Source of the DNA: a virus
Length of the DNA: 14,852 nt
Strand: one strand, 5' to 3'
Virus genome (UHGV): UHGV-1731069
Part shown: positions 7,014 to 11,896 of the stretch, piece after piece
Layout: each line of letters starts with the position of its first letter
Position numbering within the stretch: position 1 is the stretch's first letter
Notes under the pieces: model-generated
Databases searched by the model: none
What the model was told of the DNA's origin: nothing
What the model saw: only the letters and a program-made list of their open reading frames with translations
Translations under genes and position numbers: made by a program

Positions 7014-7310
7014 TCACTCCTGTTCACTGGCCTCTTTGGCCATCTTCAAATACTGTTCAGGGCAATGCGCCATAACGCGCTGAAACAGTTCCAGCGCCAG
7101 ATTGCGTTGCCCCTCATTAAATGCCATTGCCATAGCGTCCATCGGCGAGATAGCGGAAAACACACGGCCTTTCTCCAGTACCGACCAGACAACCCGACGC
7201 CCCTGTTCACAGCTCATGACAAAGCGAATGTCATCAATTTCACGCTGTGCCATGTCACGTTGCTTACGGGCGTTTTCTTCTTTCAGTTGATCGTCTTCGT
7301 AATCTGTCAT
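7014..7310 (-). CDS. Hypothetical phage protein between portal and scaffold
   Basis: 98-aa ORF, ATG at 7310 overlapping the portal stop (ATGA), GGGTGGG upstream. No recognisable motif. Confidence 0.5.
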   Translation of the reverse strand: MTDYEDDQLKEENARKQRDMAQREIDDIRFVMSCEQGRRVVWSVLEKGRVFSAISPMDAMAMAFNEGQRNLALELFQRVMAHCPEQYLKMAKEASEQE

Positions 7311-8986
7311 TGTGATTGCCCACCCTGACCACTAACTGCATTCGCCATAGCTGACAAAACACTCGGATCCGAAGTTTTAGCTTCGCTTAGCGTCTTGGCC
7401 CCCTGTGCCGCCGCCATCCCCATCGCCATCATTTGTTGCTGCTGTTGCTGCTGTGCCCGTTGCTGGCGAGCCTGCTCAACCTGTTCCTGCGGAACAATGA
7501 CGGTTGGAGACACTCCGGACATATCAGCGAATGCATCGATCGCCTGATCAACGTTGAGTTTGTCGAGAGCTTCTGGTTTCGCTTGCGCAAGTTGACCAAT
7601 GAAGTTAACCGTGGACGCCAGACTGGACAGGCCGATAGACTTCTGCGCCTGAGCCATGACGGAAATGTATTCGACCTTCAGGGGCATGCCTTCCATCGCG
7701 TCAGGCGGTGGCGGCAGCATGTTTTTACGCACCATCATCGAGAAAGCGCGGTCAATGAGAGGATTAAGACATTCGTCGTTCAGACGCTCCAGAACCGGCC
7801 CCAACATCAGAAGTTTTTCTTCTTTCATTTCGATCACCGCTTCAACAGGCATCGAGCGGGTATTGATGTTCTGCAACATCATGAACAGATCGACAAAGTA
7901 GGCGCTGTTAATGATTTGACGAGTGTCCTGAATGTCTGCCACCAAATCTGCTGTACTGGGGTTAACCAGATAAGCAGGCCTGAAGCCATCCTGACCAGTA
8001 ATCTGATCGATATACGTGATGTCGCCAGGAAGAAGGGAGGCGCGCTGATTCTTGAGGGAAGTCGGAGCAACCATCGGCGGATTGGTGGCTTTATCAATCA
8101 ACTGCGACTTGCGCTTCTGGAGAAGCTGCAATGCCTTAACAGGTCCAAGCGCCAGCATGCCCGGGCATGATGATCCATAAACATCTTCACCGTTAACTTC
8201 CCAGCGCGGAGCCATAATTGGAAACTCATCGAATCCGGACTCACGCAACAACTTGTCGTTATCGCCACCAACCTCGTAATAAACCGATTTGAATGGCTTG
8301 TTCTTGCTATCCAGCTTCGATGTATCGCGGTCAATGTTCGGGTAAACCGAATGCATCACGTCAATCCACTTCTCGTAGATGCCGCTTTCCCACATGCTTT
8401 TTACGGATTCGCTGACGTTATTTAGCCCGAACTCCTGAACAAGCTGACGAACAGTCATAGAGAACTTGCGAAAACAGGTGTCAACACTGCCACGAGGTGA
8501 GTTAGCCAGGTAGTAACTGCCTATCGGGAATGGCATTGTGCGAATGATGTCCTCATCATCCTCCAGTACCGCCATTGCACCGGTGCTGTATGTGCCGAGG
8601 CTTCCGTATAACTGCGGCAGCGACTGATAGAGATTCGACTTATTGAACATATCGTTCATGCGGTTCTGCACCGCCTCAAGCCACAACTTAACAGGGCCAT
8701 AATCCATCATTTCAGGATCTGGCGTAGCCAGGCGAAACCACGGACGCGCGGGGCTTGTGATGCCTGACATCATGCCGCTGGCGAGAGTGCGCGCCGCCAT
8801 AGTCCCGGTCGAATCAATAATGTGTGTATTGCGCCGATCGTTACGGTTGGCCTCAGAAGTCAGAAAGCGGGAACCACGCGGGTTGATGTAATCACTCAAC
8901 TCGCGCCAGTGCGGCTCGAACGACTGACGCTCGCTTTCAAGTTGTGCGAACTGTTTGTTCAATCGCTCTTTAGTTGTTTCCGCCAT
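7307..8986 (-). CDS. Portal (head-tail connector) protein
   Basis: 559-aa ORF, ATG at 8986 with GGAG 8 nt upstream. Size, position after the terminase and a Gln/Met/Ala-rich C-terminal tail (QQQQQQQMMAMGMAAAQGA) resemble the T7 gp8-type connector as I recall it. Confidence 0.75.
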   Translation of the reverse strand: MAETTKERLNKQFAQLESERQSFEPHWRELSDYINPRGSRFLTSEANRNDRRNTHIIDSTGTMAARTLASGMMSGITSPARPWFRLATPDPEMMDYGPVKLWLEAVQNRMNDMFNKSNLYQSLPQLYGSLGTYSTGAMAVLEDDEDIIRTMPFPIGSYYLANSPRGSVDTCFRKFSMTVRQLVQEFGLNNVSESVKSMWESGIYEKWIDVMHSVYPNIDRDTSKLDSKNKPFKSVYYEVGGDNDKLLRESGFDEFPIMAPRWEVNGEDVYGSSCPGMLALGPVKALQLLQKRKSQLIDKATNPPMVAPTSLKNQRASLLPGDITYIDQITGQDGFRPAYLVNPSTADLVADIQDTRQIINSAYFVDLFMMLQNINTRSMPVEAVIEMKEEKLLMLGPVLERLNDECLNPLIDRAFSMMVRKNMLPPPPDAMEGMPLKVEYISVMAQAQKSIGLSSLASTVNFIGQLAQAKPEALDKLNVDQAIDAFADMSGVSPTVIVPQEQVEQARQQRAQQQQQQQMMAMGMAAAQGAKTLSEAKTSDPSVLSAMANAVSGQGGQSQ

Positions 8987-9000
8987 TTCAATGACTCCGG

Positions 9001-9207
9001 TTACTGACCAAGCAGCGTTTTACCGCTGGTATTAGCAGTTGATGTGTCGCCCTGAGAACCGGTAAGCAGCGTAGAACTACGACCAGCAGCAGCGCGACGG
9101 CGACGTGTTTCTTCGTCGCGGGCATCAACAACGGCGGCATCCTGCTCCTGTGGTGCTGCCTGAACTTCTGGTGTTGCAGGCACTGATGGTGAGCTACCCA
9201 TGCACAT
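9001..9207 (-). CDS. Small low-complexity protein upstream of portal (possibly a gp7.3-like virion protein)
   Basis: 68-aa ORF with ATG at 9207. Its translation initiation region (CGGAGTCATTGA then ATG) duplicates the portal's over 12 nt, which supports real translation. Ala/Pro/Gln/Ser/Thr-rich with an RRRR cluster. Confidence 0.4.
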   Translation of the reverse strand: MCMGSSPSVPATPEVQAAPQEQDAAVVDARDEETRRRRAAAGRSSTLLTGSQGDTSTANTSGKTLLGQ

Positions 9208-9275
9208 ATCAATGACTCCGTACGCAATTAAATTATTACCAATTTAACCACATATGATTTATTTATCGTAGGTAG

Positions 9276-9304
9276 TTGACATTTAACGCACGAATTATTA
9301 CCTT
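9276..9304 (+). promoter_or_regulatory. Candidate sigma70-type promoter reading toward the tRNA
   Basis: Perfect -35 TTGACA (9276-9281), 17-bp spacer, then TACCTT (9299-9304), which matches the three most conserved -10 positions. Lies in an AT-rich tract with a 10-bp direct repeat AATTATTACC at 9231-9240 and 9293-9302. Confidence 0.25.
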
Positions 9305-9635
9305 TCAGGTAAGTAAAGGGTTCATTCCGGTTATTAACCTGACTGGCTTGTCGTTAAATTGAACAGGTGGAGTGAGCTTTTATTTTGAGCAGTACGGCGT
9401 ATGGCACATGCGCCGATAGCGGTCTGGATACGTTTAAGGGGCACCCTCCCTTGCTCGGGCAAACGAACCAGGTAGCTGGAATGTGCAAGTCGAGCGGTTT
9501 TATTCCGCGCGCGGGGATTCACCATCCCGGCGATTCGGTGTGACGCCTCGGAAGAGACGAGGGTACAACGATGAGAGCATTTATGGAGCTGCGACAAAGT
9601 GTGGCGCACTTAACAGGCTAAGTGCTCTCAGCGTT

Positions 9636-9712
9636 GTGGCATTAGCTCAGTTGGACAGAGCAACCGCCTTCTAAGCGGTTGGTCGCAGGTTCGAATCCTG
9701 CATGCCACGCCA
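9636..9712 (+). tRNA. tRNA-Arg (anticodon TCT, reads AGA), argU-like, phage-encoded
   Basis: Hand-folded cloverleaf: acceptor GTGGCAT/ATGCCAC, D-stem GCTC/GAGC, anticodon stem ACCGC/GCGGT with loop CTTCTAA (anticodon TCT), T-arm GCAGG-TTCGAAT-CCTGC, discriminator G and encoded CCA. Closely resembles E. coli argU as I recall it but with a different acceptor stem. Confidence 0.9.
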
Positions 9713-9755
9713 GAATCACGCCTAAGGACCGTGATGCCAGAAGTTCCAGGGGCTT

Positions 9756-9797
9756 GGCGGTGATGGTTTCCCTTGAAGGACTATCACCGCCCTTTTT
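9756..9797 (+). terminator. Intrinsic terminator-like hairpin downstream of the tRNA
   Basis: 9-bp perfect stem GGCGGTGAT / ATCACCGCC with an 18-nt loop, followed by CTTTTT. Confidence 0.45.
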
Positions 9798-9875
9798 ACA
9801 GCAGGACGCCATTGCGATGACTTCATGCTGTAAACCAGTACAGCCACGGAAGGCATAACTCATTGCTTCCAGTTC

Positions 9876-9899
9876 GCCCGGTTCGCCGGGCATTTTTTT
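9876..9899 (+). terminator. Intrinsic terminator-like hairpin immediately upstream of the 139-aa ORF
   Basis: GCCCGG-ttcg-CCGGGC (UUCG tetraloop), then A and seven T. The SD AGGTGA (9901-9906) and ATG 9911 follow directly. Confidence 0.55.
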
Positions 9900-9910
9900 A
9901 AGGTGAGATC

Positions 9911-10330
9911 ATGAAGACAATTGATATGTTGGCTAAGTATCTAAATGAATGGCCATTAAAATATTCTCGTATCGTTCAGGCTGAAGACTGCATTTTTTAT
10001 GGCGTTTTTGCTGATAATGAAATGCATTACGAAGTAATTCAGAGTGAGGGACTGGCCGGGTTAACTCTTAGCGAAGACCATGGTACTAGCGTTACGTTCC
10101 ATGACTGGATAACAGCACAACGTTCTGAAATGGAAAAAGGCGATGTGTTTGATATTTCTCGCGCTGTTTACGCTAAAGCAAAAAGTGATAATGATTACAT
10201 GAGCGAACACTTATACAACATGAAGTTACAATGCCTGCATGCGGCGCTTATTCAGAATGGGCACTTCGATAAAACAAGTGCCATCAATATTGCGGAAGCC
10301 ATCAACGCTGGATTTAATGCCATTAAATAA
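9911..10330 (+). CDS. Hypothetical protein, moron-like accessory gene of unknown function
   Basis: 139-aa ORF on the opposite strand to all flanking genes, with SD AGGTGA 4 nt before the ATG and its own downstream terminator. Hand count gives about 30-37 percent G+C over the first 110 nt, clearly below the flanking structural genes. No recognisable catalytic motif or transmembrane segment. Confidence 0.6.
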   Translation: MKTIDMLAKYLNEWPLKYSRIVQAEDCIFYGVFADNEMHYEVIQSEGLAGLTLSEDHGTSVTFHDWITAQRSEMEKGDVFDISRAVYAKAKSDNDYMSEHLYNMKLQCLHAALIQNGHFDKTSAINIAEAINAGFNAIK

Positions 10331-10333
10331 CAC

Positions 10334-10347
10334 CGTGACATGTCACA
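10334..10347. repeat. CGTGACATGTCACA, containing the perfect 12-bp palindrome GTGACATGTCAC (copy 1)
   Basis: Read directly; lies between the stop of the 139-aa ORF and its terminator, 74 nt from the large terminase stop. An identical 14-mer is at 12599-12612. Confidence 0.6.
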
Positions 10348-10350
10348 AAC

Positions 10351-10377
10351 AGCCAGCCGATGAGCTGGCTTTGTTTT
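10351..10377 (+). terminator. Intrinsic terminator of the 139-aa ORF
   Basis: AGCCAGC-cgatga-GCTGGCT followed by TTGTTTT. Confidence 0.6.
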
Positions 10378-10420
10378 ATCCTCATCAGAGGATATCAACG
10401 ACATTATCCCCACCAGCGGA

Positions 10421-11896
10421 TTAAGCATAGGGATCGTAATCTGTGATGGCCTTGCCTTGCTGGTTCTGCTGCCCGGGAATTCGCAGACGCTTCGACACAG
10501 GAAAAGCAAACGTCAGCAGTAGCGCATCGCCTTTACCCGGCGAACGCCCAAGCCGCTCCTTGATATCTTCCTTCGGTTCGATAACGATTTTACCGTCCAC
10601 GCGAACTTTGTACTCTGCCGCCGACAGGTCGTCTGCAGTTTCCTGGTCATCCAGCATGCCGCCCAGCCTCAGCCATGTCTTACATGAGTTGAACATCTCC
10701 CCACGCTTGTTGAGCATCTGCGGGTCAGTAGACGCGCCACCGAACGGAACAAGTTGCCATGTACGACCCCAGCCGTCACCGATTGACTTCAGACCAGTTC
10801 CGTAACCGAAGTCGATGAACACTGCGTCAGCCTGGTACTGGTCTTCAAAGTCAGCGATACGCTTCGCCATAATCAGATCGTCAGTGGTCTTGTTGCCAGT
10901 CCACAGCACCTTACTGTGCAGCCCCTGCCGCAGGTATATCACAGCGTCATCAACGCCTGAGTATGCCGGGTCAACGCCGATTATCACCGGAGCATGTGCA
11001 ACCTGCGCAGCGGTGACCACCCGTTTCATTGCCTCGTCAGTAAGTCCGGTAGGGATAAACTGCAATTCAGATGCATCCGGGAATATGCCGCGCACACGGA
11101 TTTTAACGAAGTCGCTGTCTTCCCCGTAGTCATCAACCCATTTCTGCAACTGCTGTTTGTTGGTGCCTTCCACCGTCCGGCTGTCAATCTGCGCAGTTTT
11201 CCAGCGGTGTTTATATTTGCGGAAACATTCGCGGAAACGTCCGGTATTACGCGTCGGGTTTCCGAACGCCACCCAGATAATCTCAGTGTCTTCGTCCGTA
11301 AGCGCACCCTCAGCAACTTCCCACACCAGATCCGCAATGTTCGACGCTTCATCGAATACCACGATGATGCGTTTGCGCTCGTTGTGTAGTCCGGCGAATG
11401 CCTCAGTGTTGTGCTCAGACCAGGGGATTGCGTCAGCTCGCCACCGCTTGTCGTGCCCAGGATCATTGCTGTACATCGCGGTAGCGGTACAGGTAAACCA
11501 GTCTTTCGTGATAGCAAGGTTCGACCACTTGATAATTTCCGGCCAGGTCTTCGTTCGTAGCTGGTTGTCGGTGTTGGCAGTCACCACGACCTTACAATCC
11601 TCGCAAGTGGACATGCCCCAGTTGATCAGCATTGAGATGAATGCGGATTTACCAATACCGTGACCAGAAGCGCGTGCCAGCATAAGCGGCTGATAGCGCG
11701 TCTCTGGATTCTGCAGGTGATCACGTATCTCTCGGAACGCATCAGCCTGCCACTGACGTGGGCCGGTGGCATGTGCCAGTTCAGTCCCCTCTTCCCCCCA
11801 CGGGAACGCATAGAGGGCATAGCCAAGCGGATCGTGAGTGAACCCTGCAATATCCTCGATCAACTGCTCTTCAGGAGATAACGCTGTATCTGTCAC
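10421..11896 (-). CDS. Terminase large subunit
   Basis: 491 aa with Walker A-like ARASGHGIGKS, Walker B-like IIVVFDEAS, and a C-terminal nuclease-like region (VIIGVDPAYSGVDDAV). GTG start at 11896 overlaps the small subunit stop (GTGA); there is no in-frame ATG nearby. Confidence 0.85.
   Translation of the reverse strand: MTDTALSPEEQLIEDIAGFTHDPLGYALYAFPWGEEGTELAHATGPRQWQADAFREIRDHLQNPETRYQPLMLARASGHGIGKSAFISMLINWGMSTCEDCKVVVTANTDNQLRTKTWPEIIKWSNLAITKDWFTCTATAMYSNDPGHDKRWRADAIPWSEHNTEAFAGLHNERKRIIVVFDEASNIADLVWEVAEGALTDEDTEIIWVAFGNPTRNTGRFRECFRKYKHRWKTAQIDSRTVEGTNKQQLQKWVDDYGEDSDFVKIRVRGIFPDASELQFIPTGLTDEAMKRVVTAAQVAHAPVIIGVDPAYSGVDDAVIYLRQGLHSKVLWTGNKTTDDLIMAKRIADFEDQYQADAVFIDFGYGTGLKSIGDGWGRTWQLVPFGGASTDPQMLNKRGEMFNSCKTWLRLGGMLDDQETADDLSAAEYKVRVDGKIVIEPKEDIKERLGRSPGKGDALLLTFAFPVSKRLRIPGQQNQQGKAITDYDPYA

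Follow-up and report, generated by a model that had tools for sequence, protein, structure and literature searches.

A conserved structured RNA, a tRNA-Arg and an exchangeable gene slot between the terminase and portal genes of an epsilon15-like prophage

The window analyzed here is a stretch of 14,852 nucleotides (nt) of the virus genome UHGV-1731069, and its subject is a break of 1,213 nt (9208-10420) between the large terminase gene (10421-11896) and a gene for a gp3-like protein of 68 amino acids (aa; 9001-9207). The features in this break all lie on the plus strand, against the minus-strand late operon around it, and comprise a leader RNA whose structure is real by covariation, a tRNA-Arg(UCU), and a polymorphic gene slot that holds a 139-aa open reading frame (ORF), here called ORF139, and in near-identical prophages other genes or none. 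Together with a predicted promoter in front of the RNA and two terminator-like hairpins before the slot, they probably make up a self-contained accessory transcription unit opposing the late operon. Small nucleotide sponges known to counteract bacterial immune systems are the commonest occupants of the slot, and the RNA, which has no entry in Rfam, is present in a third of complete E. coli genomes.

Setting of the break and exchange of its gene

In a RefSeq-annotated twin of the window (98.8% identical) and in phiV10 the minus-strand order is small terminase, large terminase, island, 68-aa gp3-like gene, portal, protease and major capsid protein. By this order of neighboring genes, the window is the morphogenesis region of an epsilon15/phiV10-like (Uetakevirus) prophage. 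The region 9208-10420 matches phiV10, TL-2011b, the O157 typing phages 9 and 10, Salmonella phages of the SPN1S group and other Uetakevirus genomes, and prophages matching this 1.2-kb region occur in 526 of 5,426 complete E. coli genomes. The remaining minus-strand intergenic gaps in the window are all 51 nt or less, most of them being overlaps of 1-4 nt, and the break is the only one in the coupled minus-strand genes, as a preliminary description of the sequence had stated. That description had also reported the argU-like tRNA and, on the opposite strand to the late genes, the 139-aa ORF with a Shine-Dalgarno sequence and a terminator of its own, and both readings hold (Table 1). Three features were absent from it: 430 nt of conserved non-coding sequence 5' of the tRNA, the two terminator-like hairpins, and the junction between a T-run and the Shine-Dalgarno sequence.

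We aligned the window with phiV10 and the Salmonella phage SPC32H. The three sequences are near-identical from the gp3 side through the tRNA to TTTTTTTAAGGTGA, and the ORFs that follow are unrelated. Near-identity resumes at TAACACCGTGACATG and extends from the stop codon through TAACACCGTGACATGTCACAAACAGCC and the terminator T3, so that the right boundary is conserved in phiV10 and SPC32H despite the unrelated ORFs. For a census of the slot, 80 IMG/VR loci with a large terminase 99-100% identical to that of the window were fetched, and 78 islands, the window included, were counted. PF13876-type proteins (112-125 aa) occupy 37 of them and the window type (phrog_4846) 17; ten encode transmembrane or coiled-coil proteins (246/282 aa), four are empty, four carry a 110-aa ORF, and two each carry a 115-aa ORF, a 61-aa stub or two tandem ORFs. 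The slot thus has at least seven allele classes, the empty one included, between constant flanks, and the comparison with related genomes that the preliminary description had suggested finds its ORF in a minority of islands and far from universal. Small genes would be swapped into the slot by recombination between fixed boundaries, the Shine-Dalgarno sequence on the left and the stop codon with the terminator on the right.

What are these genes? The product of phiV10p03, which occupies the same slot, matches PF13876 (E 6e-35), and PF11195 is matched (E 4e-26) by the ORF at this slot in Klebsiella phage ST512-KPC3phi13.3. PF13876 is the Acb4 anti-CBASS sponge family and PF11195 the Tad2 anti-Thoeris sponge (10.1101/2024.12.30.630793, 10.1101/2025.07.12.664507). 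Compared directly, the Acb4-type protein of phiV10 and the Tad2-like protein of the Klebsiella phage show no relation. Because the commonest occupants are sponges for nucleotide signals, Acb4 directed against CBASS and the Tad2-like protein against Thoeris, we infer that the slot is a cassette used mainly for counter-defence genes. This strengthens the earlier guess at a defence or counter-defence function. A point against so uniform a reading is that some alleles encode proteins with membrane or coiled-coil segments (of 282 and 246 aa, and a 138-aa transmembrane protein in SPC32H), with weak coiled-coil matches in PADLOC. These resemble exclusion or abortive-infection proteins more than sponges and could serve exclusion functions, and therefore the slot is not purely a counter-defence site.

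The slot is a natural exchange site at which Acb4 and Tad2 sponges alternate with at least five uncharacterized small proteins in near-identical prophages. This alternation with known sponges makes the phrog_4846, 110-aa, 115-aa and membrane or coiled-coil alleles good candidates for new inhibitors or exclusion functions. Among the Acb4-type alleles themselves (112-125 aa; loci L005-L084) the N- and C-terminal parts are common to all, and at least five different middle segments lie between them, a variety that looks like diversification of one sponge surface.

In a moron of the type described by Hendrix, conserved genes flank an additional gene that brings its own promoter and terminator. The island resembles such morons in being an opposite-strand insert in a tightly coupled operon, in its lower G+C content, in its own terminator and in its presence/absence polymorphism among near-identical phages. 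It differs in that the ORF alone is exchanged and lies behind two terminators, and in that its promoter seems to be that of a longer, conserved unit of RNA and tRNA. The G+C content of ORF139 is 39.5%, compared to 50.5% for the whole window (lowest 300-nt window 0.39). It is thus below its surroundings, as had been proposed, although the hand count of 30-37% given earlier is too low across the whole ORF. The proposal of a horizontally acquired moron likewise stands for the ORF, which is swapped wholesale between constant flanks, but not for the tRNA and the ORF as one acquired block. The tRNA sits at a fixed position in the island in 76 of 77 close relatives regardless of the ORF, and in several more distant epsilon15-like relatives a cassette ORF accompanies the leader RNA and the tRNA is missing; therefore the two are not one block. 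We regard the island as a moron or counter-defence cassette of a known kind, possibly with a put-like RNA. Acb4 and Tad2 are already known, and the new elements here would be the slot as a counter-defence exchange site and the RNA.

The promoter predicted for the unit is of the sigma-70 type. Both hexamers are the same in the E. coli sequences (window, phiV10) and in SPC32H, while the spacer between them has diverged in the three-way alignment; the predicted transcription start lies near 9311. It weighs against the accessory unit that this promoter is a prediction from sequence and that its -10 element fits three of six consensus positions, which is why a consensus scan did not list it. The first hairpin, T1, folds with -22.8 kcal/mol according to RNAfold, and compensatory changes preserve its stem in SPC32H. 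The second, T2, reaches -20.5 kcal/mol, and its SPC32H version, GCCCAC-TTCG-GTGGGC, contains two compensatory pairs; the U-run of T2 directly adjoins the Shine-Dalgarno sequence of ORF139. The interval from T1 to ORF139 was scanned and contains no promoter-like site, and the single candidate promoter lies about 600 nt upstream of ORF139, ahead of the RNA and the tRNA, with the terminator T3 at the other end. The 78 nt between T1 and T2 (9800-9875, plus strand) are also conserved between the E. coli and Salmonella relatives, and no promoter or ORF accounts for this conservation.

A structured leader RNA in phages and E. coli genomes

The 430 nt between the gp3-like gene and the tRNA are 81-84% conserved in the Salmonella and Klebsiella relatives. 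To collect further copies, IMG/VR was scanned with the invariant motif GGTAGCYGGAATGTGCAAG, which gave 120 loci. Together with the loci found earlier these yielded 147 unique copies, from which 45 representatives with less than 93% identity were aligned. In this alignment the 31 named pairs of six helices are paired in 96.7% of the cells, compared to 27-45% after a shift of the partners by 1-3 columns. Changes on both sides are seen in twelve pairs, compensatory cells number 96 (at most 21 after the shift), and the covariation score is 0.230 (at most 0.064 after the shift). The pair 8-20 may serve as an example, being A-U in 24 and G-C in 21 sequences without exception. The G.U pairs place the RNA on the plus strand, which is the strand of the tRNA and ORF139. 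Helix P7 carries the 3' end of the RNA to 9637, onto the tRNA, whose first four bases (GUGG) double as the end of the conserved RNA tail.

There are two candidate pseudoknots. GCACAU/AUGUGC is invariant, and its long-range pairing is proposed by RNAalifold with no support from covariation; CACC/GGUG is replaced by AACC/GGUU in four of the 45 representatives, all of them lambdoid-type copies. By itself the RNAalifold consensus recovered only part of the structure, and folding of the window sequence alone gives a z-score of -1.9, which is modest. A covariance model built for the RNA (R1) scores the window copy at 155 bits and its matches at 127-183 bits, usually with one match per locus. The sole locus with two copies is L108 (3982-4153 and 4788-4958, minus strand), where about 800 nt separate them on one strand and their scores are 133 and 175 bits. 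Rfam 15 contains no family that matches the RNA in the window (E up to 1, the tRNA being the sole match) or its copies in P1, the lambdoid phage 1720a-02 and PAT1 (E up to 0.1). The conserved stretch was also considered as a degenerate tRNA array, and this was rejected since ARAGORN detects no tRNA within it. In SPC32H (locus L004, about 2800-2870) and phage 1720a-02 (locus L091, about 2700-2770) the variable hairpin of P7 contains an insert of 56-70 nt with two T-arm-like motifs, GGTTCAATTCC and GGTCAGTTCGATTCGGAC, which may be tRNA fragments.

Could the conserved stretch of 245 nt function at the DNA level, whether as an origin, as a binding site or as a boundary for recombination, or encode a short protein, instead of acting as RNA? 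It is located at mosaic junctions, a 91-aa ORF runs across it on the minus strand (9334-9609), and minus-strand ORFs over it have been annotated as genes (mEp460_037). On the other hand, indels between homologues measure 35, 19, 12, 1 and 56 nt and are not confined to multiples of three, variation clusters in compensatory pairs, the G.U pairs function on one strand only, and conserved blocks are interleaved with hairpins of variable length. We therefore consider a DNA site or a coding sequence very improbable. The 91-aa ORF and a second minus-strand ORF (9642-9893), which overlap the structured RNA and the tRNA, are probably spurious. Their counterparts are annotated as genes in several deposited phage genomes, phiV10p04 and mEp460_037 being examples of such spurious calls.

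The RNA reaches far beyond the relatives of the window. A blastn search with its core finds matches in 1,827 of the 5,426 complete E. coli genomes. They fall at 2,448 places, of which 542 are on plasmids, and in 30 of 30 sampled E. coli matches no annotated feature lies beneath the RNA. Outside the epsilon15-like phages, the stretch 9394-9635 has matches in mEp460, cdtI, Shiga toxin (Stx) 2c- and Stx2a-converting phages, P1 and P7, and it is unannotated in all of them. It is thus an unrecorded RNA family, with clear covariation and no Rfam entry, and P1-like plasmids and Stx-converting phages are among its carriers. We found no description in the literature of this RNA or of a counter-defence slot between terminase and portal genes, although a mention in King et al. 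2011 (on HK639) or in the review by Goodson and Winkler is possible.

In every case the orientation of the RNA matches that of the downstream genes. Lambdoid copies lie 110-170 nt past a cI-type repressor gene on the same strand. In mEp460 the order is the cI stop codon, the cI terminator, two OL-type operators that repeat the sequence of an OR operator, the RNA element, a strong hairpin with a T-run, and the first gene. The operators in this interval place the RNA at the start of the PL transcript, and the hairpin 3' of it (TTGGCGGT...ACCGCyCTTTTTAC) is T1-like. At locus L173 the RNA is followed by a strong terminator, xis and int. In P1 and P7 it begins directly after the CCA end of tRNA-Ile, and in P1 it is located before ban. 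A neighboring tRNA is missing from many epsilon15-like and from all lambdoid copies. A separate pair of RNAs was noted in the lambdoid phage 1720a-02, where two Rfam matches at 208-409 of locus L091 (minus strand), C4 antisense RNA with 82 bits and isrK with 59 bits, adjoin the antirepressor gene; these are ordinary immunity RNAs of the P1/P7 type.

Table 1. Features of the break and of the adjoining genes, in window coordinates
Feature	Position	Strand	Remarks
Predicted sigma-70 promoter of the accessory unit	9276-9304	+	-35 TTGACA (9276-9281), 17-nt spacer, -10 TACCTT (9299-9304)
Structured leader RNA, about 245 nt	9394-9637	+	Covariation; not in Rfam
RNA helix P1	9395-9399 with 9411-9415	+	
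RNA helix P2	9419-9420 and 9423-9426 with 9465-9468 and 9471-9472	+	Encloses variable hairpins
RNA invariant single strand	9471-9489	+	GGUAGCYGGAAUGUGCAAG
RNA hairpin P4			Variable
RNA helix P5	9516-9520 with 9526-9530	+	GGGAU/AUCCC
RNA helix P6	9547-9551 with 9559-9563	+	CCUCG/CGAGG; GGAAGAG loop
RNA helix P7	about 9568-9578 with 9623-9636	+	CAACG+GAGAGCA with UGCUCUC+CGUUG; encloses a variable hairpin
tRNA-Arg(UCU), argU-like	9636-9712	+	CCA encoded; ARAGORN, Rfam RF00005
Terminator-like hairpin T1	9756-9799 (hairpin 9756-9791)	+	14-bp stem, then CUUUUUAC; 3' of the tRNA
Terminator-like hairpin T2	9876-9899 (hairpin 9876-9891)	+	GCCCGG-UUCG-CCGGGC, then U7
Variable cassette	9900-10330	+	Shine-Dalgarno AAGGTGA (9900-9906) and 139-aa ORF (9911-10330)
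ORF139, 139 aa, phrog_4846	9911-10330	+	AAGGTGA seven bases 5' of ATG; T3 after the stop codon
Terminator-like hairpin T3	10351-10378 (hairpin 10351-10370)	+	T-run; end of the unit and conserved right cassette boundary (TAACACCGTGACATGTCACAAACAGCCAGCC...)
68-aa gp3-like gene	9001-9207	-	epsilon15 gp3-like, phrog_831
Portal gene	7307-8986	-	gp3-like gene directly upstream

Possible roles of the RNA and the tRNA

The put RNAs cause read-through of terminators without protein factors, and this depends on the zinc-binding domain of the beta-prime subunit of RNA polymerase. We tentatively propose, by analogy and at a confidence somewhat short of even, that the leader RNA is a put-like antiterminator which takes polymerase past T1 and T2 to the cassette. 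It would act in cis on the polymerase that transcribes it, as do the put RNAs of HK022 and HK639, and the modified polymerase would then pass both hairpins and reach the cassette ORF. RNase P would free the tRNA from the shared transcript and thereby fix the 3' end of the leader RNA. A cis antiterminator would explain the layouts of the lambdoid loci, of L173 and of the window, in all of which the RNA is followed by terminators and then by genes.

The likenesses to put are mainly those of position. The putL position of HK022 equals that of the RNA in lambdoid phages, and the GenBank record of HK639 annotates a ‘putL-like antiterminator RNA’ after pL there. Like put, the RNA occupies a protein-free position in lambdoid phages where the early-left transcript begins, just after OL/PL. 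It lies 5' of intrinsic terminators that precede the operon genes, in the orientation of these genes and usually in a single copy per operon. Both have a compact fold with conserved unpaired bases, and there are short motif echoes, a stem ACGGCG...CAUGCGYCG and a GGAAGAG/GGAUGAA loop. They differ in size, in that the RNA spans about 245 nt and forms six or more helices and probable pseudoknots, compared to two stem-loops in about 70 nt for HK022 put and 126 nt as annotated for HK639. Unlike the put RNAs, it is not confined to the early operons of lambdoid phages and occurs also in the head-gene island of epsilon15-like phages and in the P1 ban operon. The HK639 record (locus L214, 37910-37969) further annotates an ‘M3-like RNA’ after the cII-like gene, which is unrelated to the leader RNA.

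Several observations weigh against antitermination. Homology to the put RNAs of HK022 and HK639 was looked for and rejected, as the R1 model finds nothing in them at E up to 10 and local alignment remains at the level of shuffled sequences; the RNA is also about three times longer than put. With the same model no putR-like second copy was found near cro or the PR operon of the lambdoid loci. A terminator is predicted between the RNA and the next ORF in 27 of the 45 representatives, by a crude test with no background control, and P1 has none between the RNA and ban. Furthermore, the four relatives with an empty slot retain both RNA and tRNA, and therefore the RNA is of some value without the cassette.

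This last observation would also fit a stable, stand-alone RNA that acts in trans, as a decoy or inhibitor of a host factor or immune system or as a regulator, with T1 merely as its terminator. Such an RNA would share its transcript with a tRNA and have its ends trimmed by the enzymes that process tRNAs, and the precise junctions with tRNAs in two unrelated phage types, after tRNA-Ile in P1/P7 and onto tRNA-Arg here, agree with this. The long invariant single strands and the candidate pseudoknots suggest a specific binding surface, and counter-defence genes adjoin. However, such an RNA has no known target, and in lambdoids the early-left operon opens with the RNA, followed by a terminator and by genes such as xis and int that depend on the same promoter, an arrangement that calls for read-through. 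The many epsilon15-like and all lambdoid copies without a neighboring tRNA also speak against it. We hold a trans-acting species to be somewhat unlikely, and below cis antitermination in probability.

If the RNA is indeed an antiterminator, it would explain early-left expression in the many lambdoids that, judged from their first ORFs, apparently have no N-type gene after PL, and it would provide a second RNA class for a mechanism known from a single family. In the most far-reaching combination of these readings, the RNA would make up a widespread new class of phage RNA by which the RNA polymerase of the host is reprogrammed. As such it would represent a second, structurally unrelated form of protein-free processive antitermination, common to lambdoid, P1-like and epsilon15-like phages, and would here drive a plug-in counter-defence cassette through two terminators, with the 139-aa protein as the founder of a new family of immune inhibitors. 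That all of this should hold at once is improbable.

The tRNA is the only one that ARAGORN detects in the window. It matches Rfam RF00005 with 73.3 bits (gathering score 29; E 1e-15) and is identical to E. coli K-12 argU in 64 of 77 positions (83%), which confirms the argU-like assignment made earlier. The two tRNAs are alike in the anticodon, the anticodon loop, the D arm, the T arm and the encoded CCA. They differ in the acceptor and anticodon stems, every change being compensatory, and in the 5' end, which in the window is fused to the structured RNA tail. This tRNA is already annotated in relatives.

The simplest function appears to be that of a plain supplement for the rare AGA codon. AGA occurs 4.0 times per 1000 codons in the window genes, roughly twice the E. 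coli average, and is concentrated in small (early) genes. It is absent from ORF139 and from the capsid, portal and terminase genes, and the codon counts indicate no strong need for AGA decoding in the late genes. The preliminary description had given a different function as an example, the replacement of host tRNAs, which here would be tRNA-Arg, cut by anticodon nucleases. Examples of phage tRNAs that counter tRNA-targeting defences are known from other systems, and a counter-defence cassette in the same island would suit such a role. We find no indication of it. Since the anticodon loop is identical to that of argU, a nuclease directed at the loop would cut the window tRNA too; the differences from argU are all compensatory and in stems, many related islands lack the tRNA, and the moderate use of AGA suffices to explain a supplement. 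Nuclease evasion is thus quite unlikely.

The 139-aa protein

Does ORF139 inhibit a host immune system as well? The sponges being the commonest occupants of its slot, inhibition of yet another such system is the likeliest function of ORF139, and on the evidence of position we give this a chance slightly below even. The inhibitor would be produced early after DNA entry. Sister phages carry the Acb4 or Tad2 sponges in the identical slot, with the same Shine-Dalgarno sequence and terminator, and ORF139 is like these sponges small, soluble and modular, its modules recombining with other small modules. Sponge domains, too, have been reported to recombine as modules (10.1101/2025.07.12.664507). In comparison to Acb4 and Tad2, however, ORF139 shows neither sequence similarity nor a fold match.

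A viral nucleotide sponge is typically a homo-oligomer with a positively charged pocket that binds the immune signaling nucleotide. ORF139 is acidic (pI 5.1) and consists of an N-domain of the alpha/beta type (residues 1-75) followed by a helical hairpin at the C-terminus (93-137). About 100 clusters of homologues are found, in Enterobacteriaceae only, and the family is catalogued (phrog_4846) and uncharacterized. The C-terminal hairpin is present also on 123-aa proteins with another N-domain, and some relatives carry a third module. The same slot between terminase and portal holds a Leclercia homologue of ORF139 and the 123-aa relatives that share the C-terminal module only.

As had been supposed from the sequence, no family of known function matches the protein. 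It matches no Pfam entry (E up to 1), PF13876 and PF11195 included, nor any NCBIfam entry or PDB sequence, and no family among the PADLOC-DB defence models at E up to 10. Foldseek found nothing in the PDB, with a first, weaker model, and only unnamed viral proteins in BFVD. A profile search against 1.8 billion representative proteins was dominated by an extra C-terminal module, which is found in few rows of the alignment and absent from ORF139; distant full-length relatives from this search raised the predicted local distance difference test (pLDDT) of the ORF139 model from 69 to 82.5. The case for an inhibitor is therefore weakened in two respects: ORF139 has no likeness in sequence or fold to any known sponge, anti-defence or defence protein, and it is its position that speaks for such a function.

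Alternatively, ORF139 would be a prophage gene that protects the lysogen by defence or superinfection exclusion. With a sigma-70-type promoter and a place outside the late operon, the unit could be active in the prophage state. Exclusion functions are common among the morons of temperate phages, and the membrane and coiled-coil alleles of the slot would be suited to them. Against this stands that about half of the alleles belong to the Acb4 family and that a Klebsiella relative has a Tad2-like protein, as sponges act for the phage; moreover, ORF139 is small, soluble, acidic and modular and lacks a PADLOC match. We judge a role in protecting the lysogen to be unlikely, and inhibition of host immunity remains our preferred reading for ORF139.

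The extra C-terminal module of the profile search (..KWLxENxHPHxSVIV...EL..G) is carried by some ORF139 relatives (P0012, P0068, P0102, P0104). It has several hundred matches in the library of 1.8 billion proteins and no Pfam family, and it recombines with other small phage modules (P0124, P0129). Beside the island, the 68-aa gp3-like protein is kept in all relatives and is rich in Arg, Ala and Thr, with a disordered-looking sequence.

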